Origin: a virus
Virus genome (UHGV): UHGV-0320970
Strand: one strand, 5' to 3'
Length of the DNA: 11,098 nt
The translations under genes were made by a program, and so were the position numbers. Positions 429 through 11,049 of this stretch are shown piece by piece. The stretch's first letter is position 1. The number at the start of each line of letters is the position of its first letter. The notes under the pieces were generated by a model, which saw only the letters and a program-made list of their open reading frames with translations, did no database searches and had not been told where the DNA came from.

Positions 429-459
429 TTTGACAACGTCGCGTGTTCGGGGCTATATT
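429..459 (+). promoter_or_regulatory. Candidate sigma70 promoter (TTGACA, ~19 bp spacer, TATATT) facing the nin-type operon
   Basis: Consensus -35 hexamer at 429-434 and -10-like hexamer at 454-459; the spacer is longer than optimal. Motif match only. Confidence 0.2.
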
Positions 460-704
460 CCTCACGCGCCAGCAAAACCTGGCGTCGGGATTAGCACCCC
501 GGATATCGAAACGGTGCATAACCGCGCTGGCGGTTTTTTTATGCGCTAAGCACAGTCACATTCGCGATTTATGGCGGGCTGTGTGGGGGAGCCGAAAGGC
601 TCGCCGGATGTTTCGACCGGTAGTGCTAACCCCGCACAGTTCGCCACCACGATGATTAGCACCTGACGGTGGCGAGGTAAAAATTATCGAAACGCGAGGT
701 CATT

Positions 705-1424: not shown

Positions 1425-1835
1425 ATGAACCAGACTATCTTCCTCCGAAGTAAACAGCAGCAACAATTCGCCATTAACGCCATCCTTGCAACAACTCTCG
1501 ATAAAGACAAACCCGTTACGATCCGCATCACCGATTACAAGCGGAATCTCGATCAAAATGCCAAATTTCACGCGATGGTCGCTGATATCTCCCGACAGGT
1601 TCAGTGGTGCGGCAGATGGCTAAAACCAGAACAGTGGAAAGTTTTGTTAATCAGCGGTCATGCCGTGGCTACAAAACAGGAAGCTGATGTTTTGCCAGGT
1701 CTTGAAGGTGAATACGTCAATATCCGCGAAAGCAGTGCGCAGATGAGCGTGAAGCGTATGGCAAGCCTGATTGAGTACACAACTTCCTGGGCTGTGGAGC
1801 AGGGTGTCAGATTTACCGACAGGAGGTATGAATGA
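1425..1835 (+). CDS. ninB: NinB-like recombination protein (136 aa)
   Basis: Translation ...[38 protein letters not shown]... aligns by eye with lambda NinB (...RNRSLDQNRKLWACLGDVSRQVEWHGRWL...). SD GAGGG upstream; the stop overlaps the next start. Confidence 0.9.
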
Positions 1836-2023
1836 GACGACAGCGACGAAGCATTACCGATATAGTCTGTGAAAACTGCAATTACCTTCCAACGAAACGC
1901 TCCCGAAATAAACCCAGGCCAATCCCCAACGAATCTGATGTAAAAACCTTCAATTATACGTCTCACCTGTGGGATGTCCGGTGGCTCAGACGTCGTGCAA
2001 GATTTAATAGTCACTCCGGATAG
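1832..2023 (+). CDS. ninE: NinE-like protein (63 aa)
   Basis: [56 protein letters not shown] matches the lambdoid NinE family. The start overlaps the ninB stop (ATGA), the canonical gene order. Confidence 0.85.
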
Positions 2024-2043
2024 TTCAATGTACGAGGAATAAG

Positions 2044-2337
2044 ATGATGGCAAACCTACGCAAAGAAGCGCGTGGCAGAGAATGTCAGGTACGGATTTAC
2101 GGCGTATGCAATGGCAATCCTGAAACTACAGTTTTGGCGCATTACCGAATAGCTGGAATTTGCGGAACGGGAATGAAGCCAGATGACCTGTTGGCTGCAT
2201 GGGCCTGTAGTGACTGCCATAATGAAATCGATCGCCGTACTCGCATTCTCGACAACAACGACGCCAGACTTTACCACCTGGAAGGCGTGATCAGGACGCA
2301 GGCGATATTGCTGAAGGAGGGGAAGATTAAGTCATGA
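2044..2337 (+). CDS. ybcO: YbcO-like DUF1364 protein (Cys/His-rich putative nuclease), 97 aa
   Basis: ARGRECQVRIYGVCNGNPETTVLAH...CSDCHNEIDRR pattern matches the DLP12 YbcO family. Tandem ATGs at 2044 and 2047; the stop overlaps the rusA start. Confidence 0.8.
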   Translation: MMANLRKEARGRECQVRIYGVCNGNPETTVLAHYRIAGICGTGMKPDDLLAAWACSDCHNEIDRRTRILDNNDARLYHLEGVIRTQAILLKEGKIKS

Positions 2338-2696
2338 ATGAATATGAGTTTGTGCTTCCCTGGCCGCCGACGGTGAATACCTACTGGCGAAGACGGGGAA
2401 GCCAGTACTACATCAGCGATAAAGTCCAGAAATACCGAAAAGACGTACAGCAAATCATCCGGCAACTCAGATTAGACATTTTCACTAAATCACGACTTCG
2501 CATCACAATTATTGCTGAACCACCAGACTCCCGCCGTCGCGACCTCGATAACATCCTGAAAGGTTTACTCGACTCTCTTATCCACGCCGGATTTGCGGAA
2601 GACGACGAGCAATTCGATGACATTCGCGTAATTCGCGGCGTGAAAGTGCCTGGCGGTAGAGTGGGGATAAAAATCACCGAACTGGAGAACATTTGA
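2334..2696 (+). CDS. rusA: RusA Holliday-junction resolvase (120 aa)
   Basis: MNEYEFVLPWPPTVNTYW...RRRDLDNILKGLLDSL...DDEQFDDIRV closely parallels E. coli RusA, including the acidic catalytic region. Start overlaps the ybcO stop (ATGA). Confidence 0.92.
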   Translation: MNEYEFVLPWPPTVNTYWRRRGSQYYISDKVQKYRKDVQQIIRQLRLDIFTKSRLRITIIAEPPDSRRRDLDNILKGLLDSLIHAGFAEDDEQFDDIRVIRGVKVPGGRVGIKITELENI

Positions 2697-2890
2697 TGAA
2701 TGCTAAAATTCAAACGATACCTGAATTACTGATCTGCACCAGGGGAAATCAGACAGAAGTCGCCAGAATACTGAACTGCAATCGTGCTACAGTCAGAAAA
2801 TACATTGATGATAAAGATGCGAAAAAGCACGCCGTCGTCAATGGCGTCCTTATGGTTCATCGCGGATGGGGTAAAGATACTGATGCGTGA
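2696..2890 (+). CDS. ninH: NinH-like protein (64 aa)
   Basis: ...[52 protein letters not shown] resembles lambda NinH (HTH-like). The ATG at 2696 overlaps the rusA stop; the track start at 2693 is a TTG three nt upstream. Confidence 0.85.
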
Positions 2891-3263
2891 TATCCGGCAG
2901 GTTCTTGAGCGCTGGGGGGCATGGGCGGTAAATAACTATGAGGATGTTACATGGTCGCCCATTGCTGCCGGATTTAAGGGACTGATCCCCGAAAAAGTAA
3001 AATCACGTCCACAGTGCTGTGACGATGATGCGATGGTGATATGCGGGTGCATAGCCCGCCTTTACCGGAACAATCGCGATCTGCATGACTTGCTGGTTGA
3101 TTACTACGTGTTGGGGGAGACGTTCATGGCGCTGGCACGTAAGCATGGATGCTCTGATGGAACTATCGGTAAAAAATTACAGAAAGCGGAGGGCGTGGTT
3201 GAAGGGATGTTAATGTTACTTGGTGTCAGACTGGAAATGGACCGATATGCGCAACGCCTCTGA
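2883..3263 (+). CDS. Q: Late-gene antiterminator Q, short phage-82 / QuuD-like type (126 aa)
   Basis: The track ORF starts at 2784, but that portion overlaps ninH out of frame. The ATG at 2883 overlaps the ninH stop (ATGCGTGA) and gives [24 protein letters not shown]...[12 protein letters not shown]...[10 protein letters not shown], which matches short Q antiterminators. Last gene of the nin operon, as expected. Confidence 0.85.
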
Positions 3264-3302
3264 CAGGAGGCGTTTGCCGTTCACTATGTGAAGTGTGTCA
3301 AT

Positions 3303-3332
3303 TTGTGAGCGTTATGCTGTTTACTTTATAGT
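3303..3332 (+). promoter_or_regulatory. Candidate late promoter pR' / qut region (TTGTGA, 18 bp, TATAGT)
   Basis: Sits in the 131-bp gap directly downstream of Q, where lambdoid phages carry pR' and the Q-utilisation site. Hexamer match only; the exact promoter is not certain. Confidence 0.3.
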
Positions 3333-3394
3333 ACAGGGACGTAAGAGTTATCTACCTGTTAATAACATATATACAACAATGAACAGGGGGCAAA

Positions 3395-3988
3395 ATGGAC
3401 ATTGAAGATTTTCTGGAGGCGGAAGACAATGATCTGTCTCTGTGGAATGATGATATTTTAAGCATTGACTGGTTCGTTATCCTCAAAGAGCTTTTGAAAT
3501 ACCAGAACAGGTTAAAGTTAAACTATTCAGAATTACTTCTGCTGGCTAATTTTGTTTCATTTCACCAGGACGTAGATTCGCAAACATTACCATCAATATC
3601 TCTTTTTGCCACCAGAATGCGTGCATCTCGTGCCATTATAGAAGAAGGCTTTCAACGCCTGGAGGAGAAAGGGATGTTGCAGAAGATAAGTTATGCTCAA
3701 ATCGGTCATGATTATGATTTGCGGAACGTTTATGACATCAAGCCATTAATTCGTAAGTTAATTGAGGTGCTGAAAACCGAGTATGATAAAAAGCACACTT
3801 GCCCCCTCTGCGGCAAAATAGCTGTCTCTGATGAGGAAATTGAGAAAAAATTCGGATTCAGAATTTGCGGGAATAAGAAAAGGCCGCAAAGCTGGTGCCG
3901 TTCATGCAGAAGCACGAAACAACGCAGACTGAATTCATCGCTAATTGGCAAAAAAAAGCCCCGAAAATCTCCGCCCGAGGTGGTGTGA
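3395..3988 (+). CDS. Moron-like hypothetical protein, 197 aa: acidic N-terminus, winged-helix-like core, C-terminal zinc-ribbon-like motif and basic tail
   Basis: Strong SD AGGGGG 6 nt before the ATG. Visibly more AT-rich than the nin genes. Core ...RASRAIIEEGFQRLEEKGMLQKI... resembles a winged-helix recognition region. C-terminus has CPLCG ... CRSCR and a Lys/Arg-rich tail. I recognise no family. Confidence 0.7.
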   Translation: MDIEDFLEAEDNDLSLWNDDILSIDWFVILKELLKYQNRLKLNYSELLLLANFVSFHQDVDSQTLPSISLFATRMRASRAIIEEGFQRLEEKGMLQKISYAQIGHDYDLRNVYDIKPLIRKLIEVLKTEYDKKHTCPLCGKIAVSDEEIEKKFGFRICGNKKRPQSWCRSCRSTKQRRLNSSLIGKKKPRKSPPEVV

Positions 3989-4101
3989 AGCGTCGCGGAA
4001 CCCCGGATTCCACTCACGATTGAACGAGGTGCTAAAAAGTATTTTACGTACGTAAAAATCTGCATATCATGATAAGAGTGGTTACATTGCCACGCTGCTT
4101 A

Positions 4102-4126
4102 ACCCGCCGATGCGCGGGTTTTTTTG
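4102..4126 (+). terminator. Intrinsic terminator (ACCCGC-CGATGC-GCGGGT followed by a T-run)
   Basis: GC-rich 6-bp stem followed by T7, about 110 nt downstream of the moron gene stop. Candidate tR'-equivalent or moron terminator. Confidence 0.6.
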
Positions 4127-4305
4127 TACCCAGAATCCTGTGAGCTATACGGAAAGTACACAGAAAGGAAGGTACGACCGCAATTAATAACAAAATCTTA
4201 AAAATCTCATATGGCACTATTAGTTTTCTAAATATTGTATATTTTAAGTATTGCAGGATAACCCTGTAACGAAGTTTGCGTAACAGCATTTTGCTCTACG
4301 AGTTT

Positions 4306-4336
4306 GCCAGCCTCCCCTGGTGGCTGGCTTTTTTTG
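4306..4336 (+). terminator. Intrinsic terminator (GCCAGCC-TCCCCTGGT-GGCTGGC followed by a T-run)
   Basis: Perfect 7-bp GC-rich stem, 9-nt loop and T7 tail. Confidence 0.65.
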
Positions 4337-4421
4337 TATCCGTTCAACGGGAATGTTACATACCTCACAATTAAGTCAGTTGAATGTTGTCTGCCCGGAT
4401 GAGAATTTGTTAGAAAAAACT

Positions 4422-4450
4422 GCATGGTGAATCCCCCTGAGCGGAGGGGC
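4422..4450. repeat. Outer inverted repeat P1 (29 bp), left copy
   Basis: GCATGGTGAATCCCCCTGAGCGGAGGGGC; its reverse complement recurs at 4817-4845 with one mismatch. Confidence 0.85.
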
Positions 4451-4520
4451 GACTGGTGACGGTATAATCTCTGATTATCAAAACGAGAATGACGCGGGTT
4501 TAGTGGCACCGGGCTGAACT

Positions 4521-4575
4521 CACCGGGAGGCACCCGGCACCATGCAATGGCACATAGCGCCACTCTCCAGCCCCT
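4521..4575. repeat. Repeat unit 'a' (55 bp), left arm of a perfect inverted repeat
   Basis: CACCGGGAGGCACCCGGCACCATGCAATGGCACATAGCGCCACTCTCCAGCCCCT; exact reverse complement at 4708-4762 (55/55). Confidence 0.95.
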
Positions 4576-4707
4576 CTCCGGAGGGGCTTTCTTATGGACA
4601 AAAAAGCCCGCGCTGGGAGACGCGGGCGGCAAGGAATAAACAATAAAACGTGAAGTAATATTTCAGCTGGCGAATAATACCCCATAGTAATCACTCTGCG
4701 CAACTGC
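4576..4707. repeat. Spacer S (132 bp) enclosed by the 'a' inverted repeat; contains convergent terminator-like hairpins
   Basis: Plus-strand hairpin GCCCCTC-TCCG-GAGGGGC followed by TTTCTT at the a/S boundary. Minus-strand hairpin GCCCGCG...CGCGGGC followed by a T-run (plus coords ~4600-4627). A near-identical copy of S lies at 10917-11049. Confidence 0.85.
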
Positions 4708-4762
4708 AGGGGCTGGAGAGTGGCGCTATGTGCCATTGCATGGTGCCGGGTGCCTCCCGGTG
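4708..4762. repeat. Repeat unit a' (inverted copy of 'a')
   Basis: Exact reverse complement of 4521-4575. Confidence 0.95.
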
Positions 4763-4816
4763 AATTCAGTACCAGCACCTGAATCCGCGATTATCCCATA
4801 TACCTACTCGCTGATT

Positions 4817-4845
4817 GCCCCTCCGCACAGGGGGATTCACCATGC
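4817..4845. repeat. Outer inverted repeat P1', right copy
   Basis: Reverse complement of 4422-4450 with a single mismatch. Confidence 0.85.
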
Positions 4846-4891
4846 CAGTTTCTTTTAACAAACTCCCCGCAAACCAGACAACAGTCAACCG

Positions 4892-5317: not shown

Positions 5318-5577
5318 TTAGTTTCCTTGTTTATGCCTTGCTGGTGATGTTCTGAAAAGTATAAATGATATTTTTGATTGTAAACCATAGAGCAGAATTA
5401 TTTTTCTGATGTTGTTTATTGTTTATTTAAATGCAGGGTGGTTTATATCTCGTCTTGTAGTTTATCCATGCATATCTGCTTGATGATGAGGTTTTTATTT
5501 AAGGTATGGTTTTGTGTTTTTTCTGTATTACATGTCAGGTATTTTAAAGAATCATTTTTCAGATGGTGGAAAGAACC

Positions 5578-7521
5578 ATGGCATTTAAACACTATGATGT
5601 TGTCAGGGCGGCGTCGCCGTCAGATCTTGCGGAAAAGCTGACACATAAACTGAAAGAGGGCTGGCAGCCGTTTGGCAGTCCTGTGGCTATCACGCCTTAT
5701 ACACTGATGCAGGCCATTGCCGCAGAGGGTGATGTGACCACGCCTGTGGTTGTGCCCGACACAGGGGCTGGTGGCTCTCCGGGAGTGGCTACCACTGAAC
5801 CGGAGTATTACTACGTTATTCCCCTGGCCGGGCAGTCGAACGGTATGGCCTATGGTGAGGGGCTTCCTCTGCCGGAGACCTATGATCGCCCTGACTCCCG
5901 TATTAAGCAGCTGGCCCGTCGCAGCACTGTGACGCCGGGTGGTGATACCTGTGCATACAATGACGTTATTCCGGCAGACCACTGTCTGCATGATGTTCAG
6001 GACATGAGCGCACTTAACCATCCTCATGCAGACCTGAGTAAGGGCCAGTACGGGACTGTCGGTCAGGGGCTGCATATTGCCAAAAAACTGCTGCCTTATA
6101 TCCCGCAGAATGCCGGGATTCTTCTGGTGCCCTGTTGCCGTGGCGGGTCTGGTTTAACCGTGGGTAATGACGGCACGTTCAGCGAAACGTCTGGTGCATC
6201 GGCAAATTCAGCCCGCTGGGGAGTGGGTAAACCGCTGTATCAGGATTTTCTCTTCCGTACAAAAGCGGCGCTGTCGAAGAACCCGAAAAACAGGCTTCTG
6301 GCCGTGGTATGGATGCAGGGGGAAAATGATCTTGCGGACGGCAGTCAGCAGCACAGCGGCCTGTTTACCACTATGGTGCAGCAGTTCAGGGCTGATATGG
6401 CTGCATATTCTGCACAGTGTGTTGGCGGAAGTGCTGGCTCGGTGCCGTGGATTTGTGGTGACACCACGTATTACTGGAAGAATCTTAACGCCGATAAATA
6501 TGAGGCGGTATATGGCGGTTACAAGGGCAGGGAAGCACAGAATATTTTCTTTGTACCGTTCCTGACGGATGAGAATGGACAGAGCACGCCAACGAATGCT
6601 CCGGCGGAAGACCCGGATATTGTGGCTGTCGGGTATTACGGTGCAGCATCCCGAACCCAGGGCAGTTTTGTTTCGACACAGCGTGACAGCCATTTCAGCT
6701 CATGGGCACGCAGGGGCGTCATTTCAGACCGTCTGGCCTCAGCTATTATGCTCCATGCAGGGCGCACGGCTGAATTGATGCGCGGGCAGACCGTGACACC
6801 ACCGGATGAGAAGCCGTCACCTGATACACCATCAAAACCGTCCACGCCACCCGCAGACACCACGACGATGAGTACGCTATTTGCTTACCGGGCATCTGAG
6901 TCTGAAGGACGGTTGACACCACAGGGTTGGGCTGCTGGAGGTGGCAAGGCTCAAATCGTGGATGATGCCGGAGCCAGCGGGGGTAAGGCAATGAAACTGA
7001 CCAAGGAAACAGGAAGAGCCCCCTGGTACCTTGAGCATGATGCTGGTAATGGTGCGGACCTGCTGGGTAAAGGTGGTCTTGTCAGTTGTCGTTTTAAACT
7101 CGATGGCGCGCTTACGGCTAATCAGTACGCACTGGCGCTGTACTGGCCGGTTTCTTCATTGCCTCAGGGTGTCACACTGGAAGGTAATGCCGGTAACAAT
7201 CTGCTGGCGTCGTTTTACGTACAGAGCGATGCCACAGACCTCAACGTGATGTACCACAAGGGTAACGCTGACCAGAACACGAAGCTGGGGTCATTCGGCG
7301 CATTTGACAACGAATGGCATACGCTGGGTTTCCGTTTTGCCGGTAATAACAGCATTCAGGTGACGCCGGTGATTGATGGTCAGGATGGTGCACCGTTCAT
7401 GCTGTCGCAGTCTCCGGTAGGTTCTTTTGCGGCAGACAAATTACGTGTAACGGATATCACAAAAGCGGCGACGTATACGGTGCTGATTGAAAGTATAACA
7501 GTGGAAGTGAATAACCCGTAA
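5578..7521 (+). CDS. nanS-p: Prophage NanS-p-type sialate O-acetylesterase (N-terminal DUF1737-like domain, SGNH/SASA esterase core, C-terminal putative carbohydrate-binding domain), 647 aa
   Basis: The paralogue starts MAFKHYDVV, so the ATG at 5578 is preferred over the track start at 5563. Core contains YYYVIPLAGQSNGMAYGEG (GQSN nucleophile motif) and CGDTTYYW. Located in the post-Q slot where lambdoid and Stx prophages carry nanS-p. Confidence 0.88.
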   Translation: MAFKHYDVVRAASPSDLAEKLTHKLKEGWQPFGSPVAITPYTLMQAIAAEGDVTTPVVVPDTGAGGSPGVATTEPEYYYVIPLAGQSNGMAYGEGLPLPETYDRPDSRIKQLARRSTVTPGGDTCAYNDVIPADHCLHDVQDMSALNHPHADLSKGQYGTVGQGLHIAKKLLPYIPQNAGILLVPCCRGGSGLTVGNDGTFSETSGASANSARWGVGKPLYQDFLFRTKAALSKNPKNRLLAVVWMQGENDLADGSQQHSGLFTTMVQQFRADMAAYSAQCVGGSAGSVPWICGDTTYYWKNLNADKYEAVYGGYKGREAQNIFFVPFLTDENGQSTPTNAPAEDPDIVAVGYYGAASRTQGSFVSTQRDSHFSSWARRGVISDRLASAIMLHAGRTAELMRGQTVTPPDEKPSPDTPSKPSTPPADTTTMSTLFAYRASESEGRLTPQGWAAGGGKAQIVDDAGASGGKAMKLTKETGRAPWYLEHDAGNGADLLGKGGLVSCRFKLDGALTANQYALALYWPVSSLPQGVTLEGNAGNNLLASFYVQSDATDLNVMYHKGNADQNTKLGSFGAFDNEWHTLGFRFAGNNSIQVTPVIDGQDGAPFMLSQSPVGSFAADKLRVTDITKAATYTVLIESITVEVNNP

Positions 7522-8745: not shown

Positions 8746-10656
8746 TTATGCGGCTGCTCCAGCTTTGTTTGCTTTAACTTCCACCGTATCAATAAGTACA
8801 GGGTAGGTTTCTGCACTACCTGTAATATCCGTAATGACAAACCTGTTGAGTCCATTAGCAGTATTGGCCCATTTCACCAGGTCAAACGCCTGTCCATCCA
8901 CACCATCGAGCACCGGAGTAACATTAATGCTGTTACTGCCCTTAAATTTAAATGCAAGCGTATGCCAGTCATGGTCGAATGCGCCAAACGTGCCAAGTTC
9001 TTTTTGTTGATTAACTGTATGATGGTATGCAACATTAATACTGGCTTTATCTGTCTGGACAAAGAAAGAACTCAGATGGCCTTCACCACCCTCACCCGGC
9101 CATTCCGCTATTCGCCAGTACAAACCAAAGGCATACTTGTTTCTGGTTGTCTCAAGATTGACGTTTTCGGGGATTTTAAACCGGACAGCAATTTCCCCGC
9201 CTTTTTCCAGTAAAAGTTTTGCCTTGTCTGCAGCAATATCACAGTACATTGACCAGGATTTCGCGCTGTTATTTTTCTCAATTCGCAGAGCTTTATTGCC
9301 GCTGTCATCAACCAGTGTGCGTCTGCCATACATACCGTCCCAGCCATAAGGTTTCAGCTGATTGTCTGTAGCTTTTTTGGCATCGTAAAAAATTACAGAC
9401 TCTGAGGTGGTAACCGGCCTGTCTGGAACAACCACCCCGGCAGTACCATTAACAAACGCAGAAGACTTACCCGCGCAGCTCAGAATCGCCGTTGCCAGAC
9501 GGTCGGAAATAATCCCACGGCGAGCCCATGAACTGAAATGGCTCGCCCTGTCCTGTGACGTCCAGGTGGCTGAGCTGTCACGCCATTTCGAACCGTAATA
9601 ACCGATACCCGGAATGTCCGGGTCTTCTTCCGGTTTGTTCGTCGGCACATTCACCCCGTTCTCATCGGTCATGAACGGTACGAAATGGATATTCTTTTCC
9701 GTTTTATTTTTATAGCTGCCGTACACCGTCTGGTACGTGGATTCGTTCTTCTGCTTCCAGAAATACGTCGTGTCCCCGCATATCCAGGGAACACCGCCAG
9801 CAGAGCCACCGACGCACTGGCCTGCCATATCCGCCAGGTCTGCACGGAATTTATCAACCAGCGCACCAAACTGTGCGGCATGATTTGCCGGCGTACCGCC
9901 AAAATCAAATTCCCCCTGCATCCACACCACGGCAAACAGCACATTTTTCGGGTTCTTCTCCAGTGCCGCTTTTGTTCGACCGATAAGGTCCTTATACAGC
10001 GGCTTGTCCACACCCCAGCGGGTTGAATTCTCCGAGGCACCACTCGCGTCACTGTATGTGCCATCAGCTCCGGTGGTGAACGCTGAACCACCACGACAGC
10101 ACGGAACCAGCAGAATGCCCGCATTCGCCGGTATAAACGGCAGCAGTTTTTTGGCGATATGCAGCCCCTGCCCCACGGTTCCGTACTGCCCCTTTGACAG
10201 GTCCGCTTTCGGATGGTTAAGACGGCTCATGTCCTGCACATCATGCAGACAATGGTCCGCCGGAATGATGTCGTTATATTTGCATGCTGCACCGCCCGGT
10301 GTCACCGTACTGCGACGCGCTAACTGTTTAATACGTGGATCAGGGCTGTCGAATGTATCCGGTAATGGCAGTCCCTCACCGTATGACATACCATTGGACT
10401 GACCAGCAAGCGCGATCACATAGTAATATTCTGGCGCAACAGAAGGCGCTGAGGTCGTCGGACGGTTGCCTGGCTCCTCTGGTGATGAGATGCTCCCCTC
10501 ACTCACAACTGGCTGGATGAACTCCGCACCATAACCAGCTGTCGAAATCAGCGCACTACCATAAGGCTGCCACCCTTCCTTCAGTTTTTGAGTTATTCGT
10601 TTCGCAAGGTCTGACGGCGACGCCGCCCTGACAACATCATAGTGTTTAAATGCCAT
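8746..10656 (-). CDS. nanS-p: Second, diverged NanS-p-type sialate O-acetylesterase (636 aa)
   Basis: MAFKHYDVVRAASPSDLA..., YYYVIALAGQSNGMSYGEG, CGDTTYFW. Strong SD GGGAGG 5 nt upstream on the minus strand. Same three-domain layout as 5578..7521 but with many substitutions, especially in the linker and C-terminal domain. Confidence 0.9.
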   Translation of the reverse strand: MAFKHYDVVRAASPSDLAKRITQKLKEGWQPYGSALISTAGYGAEFIQPVVSEGSISSPEEPGNRPTTSAPSVAPEYYYVIALAGQSNGMSYGEGLPLPDTFDSPDPRIKQLARRSTVTPGGAACKYNDIIPADHCLHDVQDMSRLNHPKADLSKGQYGTVGQGLHIAKKLLPFIPANAGILLVPCCRGGSAFTTGADGTYSDASGASENSTRWGVDKPLYKDLIGRTKAALEKNPKNVLFAVVWMQGEFDFGGTPANHAAQFGALVDKFRADLADMAGQCVGGSAGGVPWICGDTTYFWKQKNESTYQTVYGSYKNKTEKNIHFVPFMTDENGVNVPTNKPEEDPDIPGIGYYGSKWRDSSATWTSQDRASHFSSWARRGIISDRLATAILSCAGKSSAFVNGTAGVVVPDRPVTTSESVIFYDAKKATDNQLKPYGWDGMYGRRTLVDDSGNKALRIEKNNSAKSWSMYCDIAADKAKLLLEKGGEIAVRFKIPENVNLETTRNKYAFGLYWRIAEWPGEGGEGHLSSFFVQTDKASINVAYHHTVNQQKELGTFGAFDHDWHTLAFKFKGSNSINVTPVLDGVDGQAFDLVKWANTANGLNRFVITDITGSAETYPVLIDTVEVKANKAGAAA

Positions 10657-10720: not shown

Positions 10721-10838
10721 AGGACAATGGCAGAAGGGAGACTACAGCCCGCAATTCGAAAAAGGTCGCGCAGTTGCGCAGAGTGATTACTATGGGGTAT
10801 TATTCGCCAGCTGAAATATTACTTCACGTTTTATTGTT
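10721..10838. repeat. Left arm of the terminal palindrome (118 bp)
   Basis: Reverse complement of 10981-11098, checked by eye over both ends. Its inner ~70 bp is the reverse complement of the right part of spacer S. Confidence 0.85.
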
Positions 10839-10916
10839 GATTCAGGTGCTGGTACTGAATTCACCGGGAGGCACCCGGCACCATGCAATGGCACATAGCG
10901 CCACTCTCCAGCCCCT
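10839..10916. repeat. 78-bp block identical to the reverse complement of 4708-4785 (flank R0 plus unit 'a')
   Basis: GATTCAGGTGCTGGTACTGAATT followed by the 55-bp 'a' unit; exact match to the reverse complement of the locus-1 a'+flank. Confidence 0.9.
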
Positions 10917-11049
10917 CTCCGGAGGGGCTTTCTTGTGGGCAAAAAAAGCCCGCGCTGGGAGACGCGGGCGGCAAGGAATAAACAATAAAACGTGAAGTAA
11001 TATTTCAGCTGGCGAATAATACCCCATAGTAATCACTCTGCGCAACTGC
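10917..11049. repeat. Second copy of spacer S, same plus-strand orientation as 4576-4707
   Basis: Near-identical to 4576-4707 apart from an extra A in the A-run and two substitutions (CTTATGGACA vs CTTGTGGGCA). Confidence 0.9.

Follow-up and report, generated by a model that had tools for sequence, protein, structure and literature searches.

In the 11,098-nucleotide stretch of the virus genome UHGV-0320970 analysed here as a whole (the window), we found that a 197-amino-acid (aa) open reading frame (ORF) between the antiterminator gene Q and the late promoter PR' is a real, conserved gene under purifying selection. Its product is a two-domain protein of the nucleic-acid-binding type, composed of a winged helix and a C4 zinc ribbon. 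As judged from sequence alignments, the gene is a horizontally acquired, AT-rich accessory insertion between Q and PR' relative to standard Shiga toxin 1 (Stx1) phages, and it ends before the constitutively transcribed leader begins. We tentatively read the protein as a site-specific DNA-binding regulator made together with Q during lytic growth.

A conserved gene under purifying selection between Q and PR'

An earlier note on this stretch had described the ORF as preceded by a strong Shine-Dalgarno sequence and as shifted in composition towards AT, and both observations were confirmed. The coordinates of the gene and of its ribosome-binding site are given in Table 1, and the windowed G+C content is 0.36-0.38 across positions 3301-3750 versus 0.46-0.52 on the nin/Q side (1500-3300). 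Between the three main alleles, the ratio of nonsynonymous to synonymous substitution rates (dN/dS) is 0.23-0.34, at a dS of 0.29-0.51, and these values indicate that the ORF is not a chance reading frame; Q itself gave a dN/dS of 0.03-0.2. Comparison of the alleles also revealed that the ORF is itself mosaic. Its first 22 codons (3395-3460) carry no substitution, synonymous ones included, in three of four alleles and a single one in the fourth (locus L007), although dS is around 0.3 for the same alleles elsewhere in the ORF, which suggests either recent recombination or a further constraint at the DNA or RNA level. We also noticed, on the minus strand within the 3' end of the ORF, a terminator-like hairpin followed by a T8 run (3959-3980; CCTCGGGCGGAGATTTTCGGGG, then CTTTTTTTTG), which could halt leftward transcription or may be a chance feature.

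The whole region 3264-4126 is present in 19 of 5,426 complete E. coli genomes, one of which (E. coli O10:H32 NMBU-W12E19; CP042892) matches it at 100% and encodes a 126-aa Q. The same 19 genomes were recovered when the 3' end of the window's Q or the spacer between Q and the ORF was used. Among deposited phages, the gene occurs in the Shigella Stx1 phages POCJ13, 75/02, and 7888, and further Stx1 carriers are prophages of E. coli O157:H7 PV15-279 and E. coli O111:H8. A search of 5.8 billion proteins returned 16 clusters, all of them from E. coli and with at least 74% identity. The ORF is annotated as "ORF1, hypothetical protein" in the record of phage 7888, and it is not mentioned in a comparative paper on pR' (PMC6266700).

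In all 11 loci of relatives that were inspected, the ORF lies directly 3' of the 126-aa Q, and the gene order is Q, ORF, PR', leader, and then stx1 or tRNA genes. Even a degraded remnant beside a transposase has kept a piece of Q, the ORF, and the beginning of PR'. The flanks are variable, with RusA or NinG modules or a helicase/primase module upstream, and stx1, tRNA genes with TerB, or nothing downstream. As only the Q-ORF-PR' core is constant, these three elements move as a unit, a pattern that would agree with a functional link to the late switch and equally with adjacency alone.

To place the insertion, the window was aligned with a standard Stx1a prophage encoding the 144-aa Q (E2865) and with the ORF-bearing Stx1a prophage of E. 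coli O157:H7 PV15-279. In the ORF-bearing type, the 3' third of Q has diverged and the ORF is added; from about position 4031 on, the window again aligns with the standard type, there with the final codons of the 144-aa Q and the DNA that follows. The moron layout that the gene had been credited with thus holds as regards insertion (from this alignment and from the 19 genomes) and composition, but no terminator of its own directly follows the gene. As in lambdoid morons such as lambda bor, lom, and the stx genes, we are dealing with a dispensable, AT-rich insertion between conserved genes that is missing from most related phages. Unlike them, the gene lies upstream of PR' and not in the late operon, with at most a weak candidate promoter of its own and no own terminator before PR'.

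Location of PR' and probable transcription of the gene

In the Sakai Stx1 and Stx2a phages, differential RNA sequencing mapped the PR' start directly 3' of the 144-aa Q, 258 nucleotides (nt) before the terminator tR'; the PR' leader is the precursor of the small RNA StxS, which is present in non-toxigenic phages too (Sy et al; PMC7547250). In both Sakai phages, Sp5 and Sp15, we found the sequence TTTACG-16-TATCAT directly after Q, followed by GATAAGAG, and counting from the A equivalent to window position 4077, the tR' T-run ends after exactly 258 nt in each. The promoter block is identical in the window, and since a start near 4077 is the only one that gives the published distance, we assigned PR' to this site. 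In agreement with this assignment, positions 4030-4088 are the best-conserved segment of the Q-to-tR' region among eight ORF-bearing loci. The Q protein leads to the same expectation: it lacks the C-terminal tail of the 144-aa Stx-phage Q and is otherwise 89% identical to it over 125 residues (80% to QuuD), and as this identity extends along its whole length, it should use the same PR'. Downstream of the promoter, the window holds a homologue of the StxS precursor, yet no stx genes.

With the PR' start at about 4077 and the end of the ORF at 3988, the gene lies outside the constitutive leader, which is occupied by the StxS-type RNA. The ORF is 55 base pairs (bp) from PR', and its stop codon precedes the start by 89 nt. 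No plus-strand terminator was found from the ORF stop to PR', and the first one downstream belongs to the PR' leader. The latter is the hairpin at 4101-4126, which had been taken as the terminator of the gene; the structure is real, but it is part of the leader and not the ORF's own. Its stem is kept in relatives despite changes in both arms, it is present in the Sakai phages too, and in locus L006 its equivalent is the sole terminator before the tRNA genes, which directly adjoin.

These results bear on the model put forward in the earlier note, in which the promoter-like site at 3303-3332 is pR' and the hairpin at 4101-4126 its terminator, the gene lying in the constitutive leader as conversion or defence cargo expressed in lysogens, in the slot where stx or tRNA genes are carried. 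The model does account for a promoter-like site with 9 of 12 consensus matches upstream, a good terminator hairpin downstream, and an AT-rich gene inserted relative to other phages. However, the PR' mapped in phages of the same Q family is the TATCAT promoter, whose block is intact and the best conserved of the region, and the 126-aa Q is expected to act on it. In addition, L006 and L007 have lost the -10 hexamer of the 3303-3332 site, sites of that quality arise at chance frequency (7 found in the region versus 6.5 expected from shuffled sequence), the stx or tRNA genes of the relatives lie beyond PR' and its leader, and the defence-system models of PADLOC gave no match. On the 258-nt rule, the lost -10 hexamer, the chance-level frequency, and the likeness of the Q proteins, we rejected this site as pR', and we regard the model as a whole as extremely improbable. 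Neither does expression in lysogens follow from the layout, as it would need the weak, poorly conserved site at 3303-3332. As an own promoter of the gene this site is a weak candidate; a constitutive promoter is possible there, with conservation not in its favour. We also rejected a cognate late promoter within 3264-3394 acquired along with a QuuD-like 3' end of Q, because the DNA downstream of DLP12 quuD is dissimilar to 3264-3394 and the Q proteins are alike over their full length.

Given that the ORF is on the same strand as Q and downstream of it, with only a weak hairpin in between, the N-antiterminated pR (nin-Q) transcript of lytic growth would most likely include it as its final gene, delayed-early and together with Q. 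The intervening hairpin, strong in its folding energy (Table 1), covers the Q stop codon. Its arms show two paired (compensatory) changes in L007 and L009, and in L006 it is followed by TTTTTTGTT, a full T-run that gives it the shape of a canonical terminator. It is probably a weak terminator or an RNA-end structure that closes the early operon between Q and the ORF. Polymerase that starts at pR and is modified by N would be expected to read through it, and unmodified transcripts would stop at the terminators of the PR' leader. Phages with the Q-ORF-PR' module are functional, as phi POC-J13 can be induced by mitomycin, an induction that depends on recA, and is plaque-forming (PMC4193171).

Domain architecture and distant relatives of the protein

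The 197-aa protein consists of an acidic N-terminus, a winged helix, a linker helix, the C4 zinc ribbon, and a basic tail. The Pfam model DnaD_N (PF21984) matched residues 31-131 with 34.8 bits, above its gathering cut-off of 27, and the fold agrees with it; a match to HTH_36 remained below threshold. Likewise, a profile search against PDB sequences retrieved the N-terminal domain of Geobacillus DnaD (E 2e-8). The AlphaFold2 model obtained with a deeper alignment has a mean predicted local distance difference test score (pLDDT) of 73, with values of 77-90 in the winged helix and 86-88 in the zinc ribbon. A Foldseek search of the PDB, run with an initial model of low confidence, had no match with E below 0.3, and a structure search of BFVD returned only generic helix-turn-helix proteins. 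PHROGs placed the protein in its own family of unknown function (phrog_34160), with weak DnaD-like, replication-initiator, and O-like matches, and the NCBIfam scan gave no match. The view that no family could be assigned was thus borne out by the profile searches. Of the two roles suggested for the protein, nucleic-acid-binding regulator or defence protein, the nucleic-acid-binding type and the predicted domain order held up, whereas a defence role is not indicated (0 PADLOC families at E <= 1). Together, these data support a protein of the nucleic-acid-binding type from an uncharacterised family. It does not match any of the three Pfam Q families (lambda Q, Q21, and Q82), and a canonical Q82-family gene lies directly upstream.

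Among the cysteines of the zinc ribbon, C136 and C139 are invariant and C168 and C171 nearly so, the truncated copy P0014 being the one exception. Distant relatives retain all four, in the motif H-x-CPxCGK...FGFR...QSWCxxCR. Variation in the ORF peaks at the putative recognition helix (residues 78-92; pN/pS, the corresponding ratio of polymorphisms, 0.5-1.1), as would be expected if DNA specificity diverges. The likeness to DnaD (PDB 2vn2 and 8ojj) is confined to the N-terminal domain: the DnaB_2-type C-terminal domain of DnaD was not matched, and the C4 zinc ribbon is found in its place. Moreover, the host is Gram-negative and has no DnaD pathway, and the gene sits in the gap between Q and PR' and not in the replication module. 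We detected no helicase- or loader-interaction domain in the protein, nor any enzymatic or effector domain.

Word-indexed homologue searches reached close relatives only, and the distant ones described below come from an exhaustive HMMER search, which gave 364 matches at E < 1e-3. The zinc-ribbon module occurs as a stand-alone protein of 50-100 aa, in tandem copies, or joined to unrelated domains, and the winged helix is also found alone. A group of proteins represented by P0018 has the same two domains and 42% identity to the window protein. Its members are carried by plasmids of 2.7-5 kb from Escherichia, Shigella, Salmonella, Citrobacter, Providencia, and Edwardsiella, and on the E. coli plasmid p3_005237 (2,959 bp) the relative (WP_123906182) is the only annotated gene. 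A scan of viral contigs with P0018 gave no match. Three of the four plasmid or plasmid-like loci examined contain a ColE1-type RNAI, and these plasmids therefore need no Rep protein; no RNAI was detected in a 2.7-kb Providencia plasmid. All plasmid or plasmid-like copies that were searched for repeats lie directly 3' of a perfect palindrome of 46-50 bp. Two plasmids have, in addition, arrays of 11-bp-phased repeats some 400 bp 3' of the relative, with the unit TAGCAAACAGA or a 33-bp version of it. These palindromes and arrays are likely to be binding sites for the winged-helix/zinc-ribbon family.

Other relatives with the same two domains are found in a fimbrial context. P0031 (Cedecea), P0027, and P0166, three independent cases, have 24-28% identity to the window protein, and each gene immediately precedes a chaperone-usher fimbrial operon of the same orientation and follows a divergent NlpC/P60 gene. 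One of the three is on a contig that also bears an IncFII repA. The order of divergent NlpC/P60 gene, winged-helix/zinc-ribbon gene, and fimbrial operon was seen as a conserved arrangement in Cedecea and in metagenomic Enterobacterales contigs (L016-L021). The gene at this position may encode an undescribed fimbrial regulator. Known fimbrial regulators of the PefI/PapI type show only 9% sequence identity and PefI has no zinc ribbon; the likeness is one of fold and context alone. Taken together, the plasmid and fimbrial contexts are in better agreement with a DNA-binding regulator that is operon-proximal and autoregulated than with a replication initiator.

Candidate functions and genomic setting

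As the regulator that we tentatively favour, the protein would oligomerise through its DnaD-N/Rep-type winged helix, a fold that forms dimers or tetramers. It would bind a specific DNA site and act as a transcriptional regulator and not as a replication initiator. Its closest candidate target would be the adjacent control region of PR' and the late operon, by analogy with the relatives that precede fimbrial operons or lie behind palindromes on ColE1-type plasmids. Several points weigh against this reading. The DnaD N-terminal domain is mainly an oligomerisation scaffold, so that DNA contact is not guaranteed, and the winged helix is of the replication-initiator type. Frameshifted or truncated copies are known (L009, P0002, P0006, and P0014), which makes the ORF dispensable for prophage maintenance, and its linkage to Q and PR' may be mere physical adjacency. 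Furthermore, the search for a DNA target in the window was negative. We found no long palindrome of the plasmid type upstream of the ORF, and no iterons, tandem repeats, or phased repeats near it. TAAGAGT, an operator candidate shared between phage and plasmid, occurs in 2 copies versus 0.84 expected, which is not significant. The sequence TTAATAACA recurs, but other ORF-bearing phages do not keep the copy that precedes the ORF, and it was rejected as a shared operator. The same applied to TAATAAC, for which the 6 copies in the window exceed the expected number of about 1 (none of 200 shuffles reached 6): its copies are scattered, with one at 3360 upstream of the ORF and one at 4185 in the PR' leader, and the upstream copy is not conserved in relatives.

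An initiator-type winged helix and a 2.7-kb plasmid with no detected RNAI make a Rep role possible for part of the family. Extended to the window, this would make the protein an orphan, replication-initiator-like factor that binds origin-type DNA of plasmids or phages (iterons or palindromes) without recruiting a helicase, and that acts in incompatibility, in exclusion, or as an aid to the replication of its own phage. Membership of the broad winged-helix class of HTH_36, the RepC N-terminal domain, and the lambda O N-terminal domain speaks for it, along with the DnaD_N match and the weak RepC and lambda-O matches in a plasmid relative. The phased arrays downstream of the plasmid genes, and the presence of relatives as the only annotated gene on plasmids of about 3 kb from the same hosts, point in the same direction. 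Nevertheless, we consider this explanation rather unlikely. Most of the plasmid hosts examined use ColE1 RNAI/RNAII, and a fimbrial-operon relative shares its contig with a repA that belongs to that replicon; in the window there are no iterons or arrays near the gene, which is outside the phage replication module, and its product has no domain for recruiting a helicase or loader.

A narrower possibility is that the protein is a dedicated partner of the Q/PR' switch, binding at or near PR' and tuning late transcription, StxS, or Stx1. The strict co-inheritance with one Q allele and the PR' block, the short distance to PR', and the regulator position of relatives before fimbrial operons are consistent with it, and so is a perfect 16-bp palindrome that overlaps the -35 hexamer of PR'. 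In phages that have the 144-aa Q and no ORF, TTTACGATCGTAAA is found at this position, with GATC (a Dam site) as its centre versus GTAC in the window, so that the central dinucleotide co-varies with the Q/ORF allele. The palindrome may be a protein-binding element, for Q or for another protein. Yet, its GATC form is present in phages without the ORF, which argues that it more likely serves Q, and adjacency alone would explain the co-inheritance. On balance, a dedicated PR' partner seems quite unlikely. A broader proposal joins both contexts: the protein would be a late-switch component of some Stx1 and lambdoid phages that binds the PR' control region and sets late, StxS, and Stx1 transcription, and its wider family would comprise operon-leading regulators, with chaperone-usher fimbrial operons under the control of some and self-regulation by others on tiny ColE1 plasmids. 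We offer this as a long shot.

Finally, the protein could be prophage cargo for anti-phage defence or anti-defence. In this respect, zinc-ribbon modules are fused to large uncharacterised domains in P0029 and P0091, and at one plasmid-like locus the module adjoins an AbiEii-like AAA ATPase and a YafO toxin. This is the only locus with defence-gene neighbours, however, and with no PADLOC match and no enzymatic or effector domain, we rate a defence function as very unlikely.

Table 1. Features of the window and of related plasmid loci (positions refer to the window unless a locus is named).
Feature	Position	Strand	Details
isrK, C4 antisense RNA, and its a1/b1 target	453-651		74, 75, and 47 bits, respectively
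Q antiterminator gene, 126-aa allele, Q82/Q933 family	2883..3263	+	Pfam Phage_antitermQ 2.4e-50; Annotated by RefSeq in CP042892 (100% match)
G+C-rich hairpin spanning the stop codon of Q	3253..3274	+	AACGCCTC-tgacag-GAGGCGTT; -19.9 kcal/mol, z -3.6
Sigma-70 promoter-like site	3303..3332	+	TTGTGA-18-TATAGT; 9/12 consensus match; candidate own promoter of the ORF, not PR'
Shine-Dalgarno-like AGGGGG	3385-3390	+	4 nt 5' of the ATG; read from the sequence; surrounding block kept in all relatives
197-aa ORF	3395..3988 (stop codon included)	+	ATG start
Winged-helix domain, DnaD-N/HTH_36 type	3467..3754	+	Residues ~25-120; putative recognition helix, residues 79-91
C4 zinc ribbon	3794..3910	+	Residues 134-172; H-x-CPxCGK...FGFR...QSWCRSCR; phrog_19700 2.3e-8; pLDDT 86-88
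Palindrome overlapping the PR' -35 hexamer	4042..4057	.	TTTTACGTACGTAAAA; perfect, 16 bp; read from the sequence
Late promoter PR'	4043..4070	+	TTTACG-16-TATCAT; start near 4077; block identical in Sakai Sp5 and Sp15
PR' leader, homologue of the StxS small RNA precursor	4077..4335	+	4077-4334 95.7% identical over 258 nt to the Sakai Sp15 leader (StxS1)
Intrinsic-terminator-like hairpin	4101..4126	+	AACCCGCC..GCGGGTT + T7; -11.5 kcal/mol; +25 to +50 of the PR' transcript
tR' terminator, end of the StxS-type leader	4306..4335	+	-20.5 kcal/mol, z -5.3
STnc100 small RNA (Rfam RF02076), three copies	4394-4599; 4698-4874; 10751-10940	+; -; +	165, 106, and 61 bits
DUF1737-SASA-DUF6645 esterase genes (nanS-p type)	5563-7521; 8746-10656	+; -	Facing each other; DUF826 gene between them
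Plasmid palindromes and repeat arrays	L013 718-763, 1768-1932; L014 1146-1195; L010 5022-5070; L015 3529-3645		

With regard to the rest of the window, Pfam matches identified an ORF6N/antirepressor gene, ninB, ninE, ybcO, rusA, ninH, and the Q82-family Q to the left of the ORF. The isrK and C4 matches lie directly upstream of the ORF6N/P22-AR antirepressor gene (705-1370), and the arrangement resembles the antisense-controlled antirepressor modules of the P1/P7/Gifsy type. To the right are the three STnc100 copies, the first two of them inverted, 100 bp apart, and placed just after tR', and two SASA-type esterase genes in opposite orientation. This right half may represent a rearrangement or the junction of two prophage late regions. 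No tRNA genes were found in the window, and across the collection of complete E. coli genomes its coverage never exceeds 50%.

The gene described here belongs to a known kind, the accessory DNA-binding proteins of prophages, and its novelty in this sense is modest; if it were just another dispensable accessory regulator, the finding would be ordinary. What we did not expect is that the family reaches as far as fimbrial operons and ColE1 plasmids with a single gene. The gene is located, in Stx1 phages of clinical relevance, at the control point of toxin and late-gene expression, and it has been carried as "hypothetical" ever since the deposition of phage 7888. With the ORF upstream of the real PR', the question becomes one of lytic expression and of the effect on PR', Q, and Stx1 output, and not one of leader expression in lysogens. 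The phage, the single-gene ColE1 plasmid, and the fimbrial operon provide three tractable systems in which to look for the DNA target of the family.

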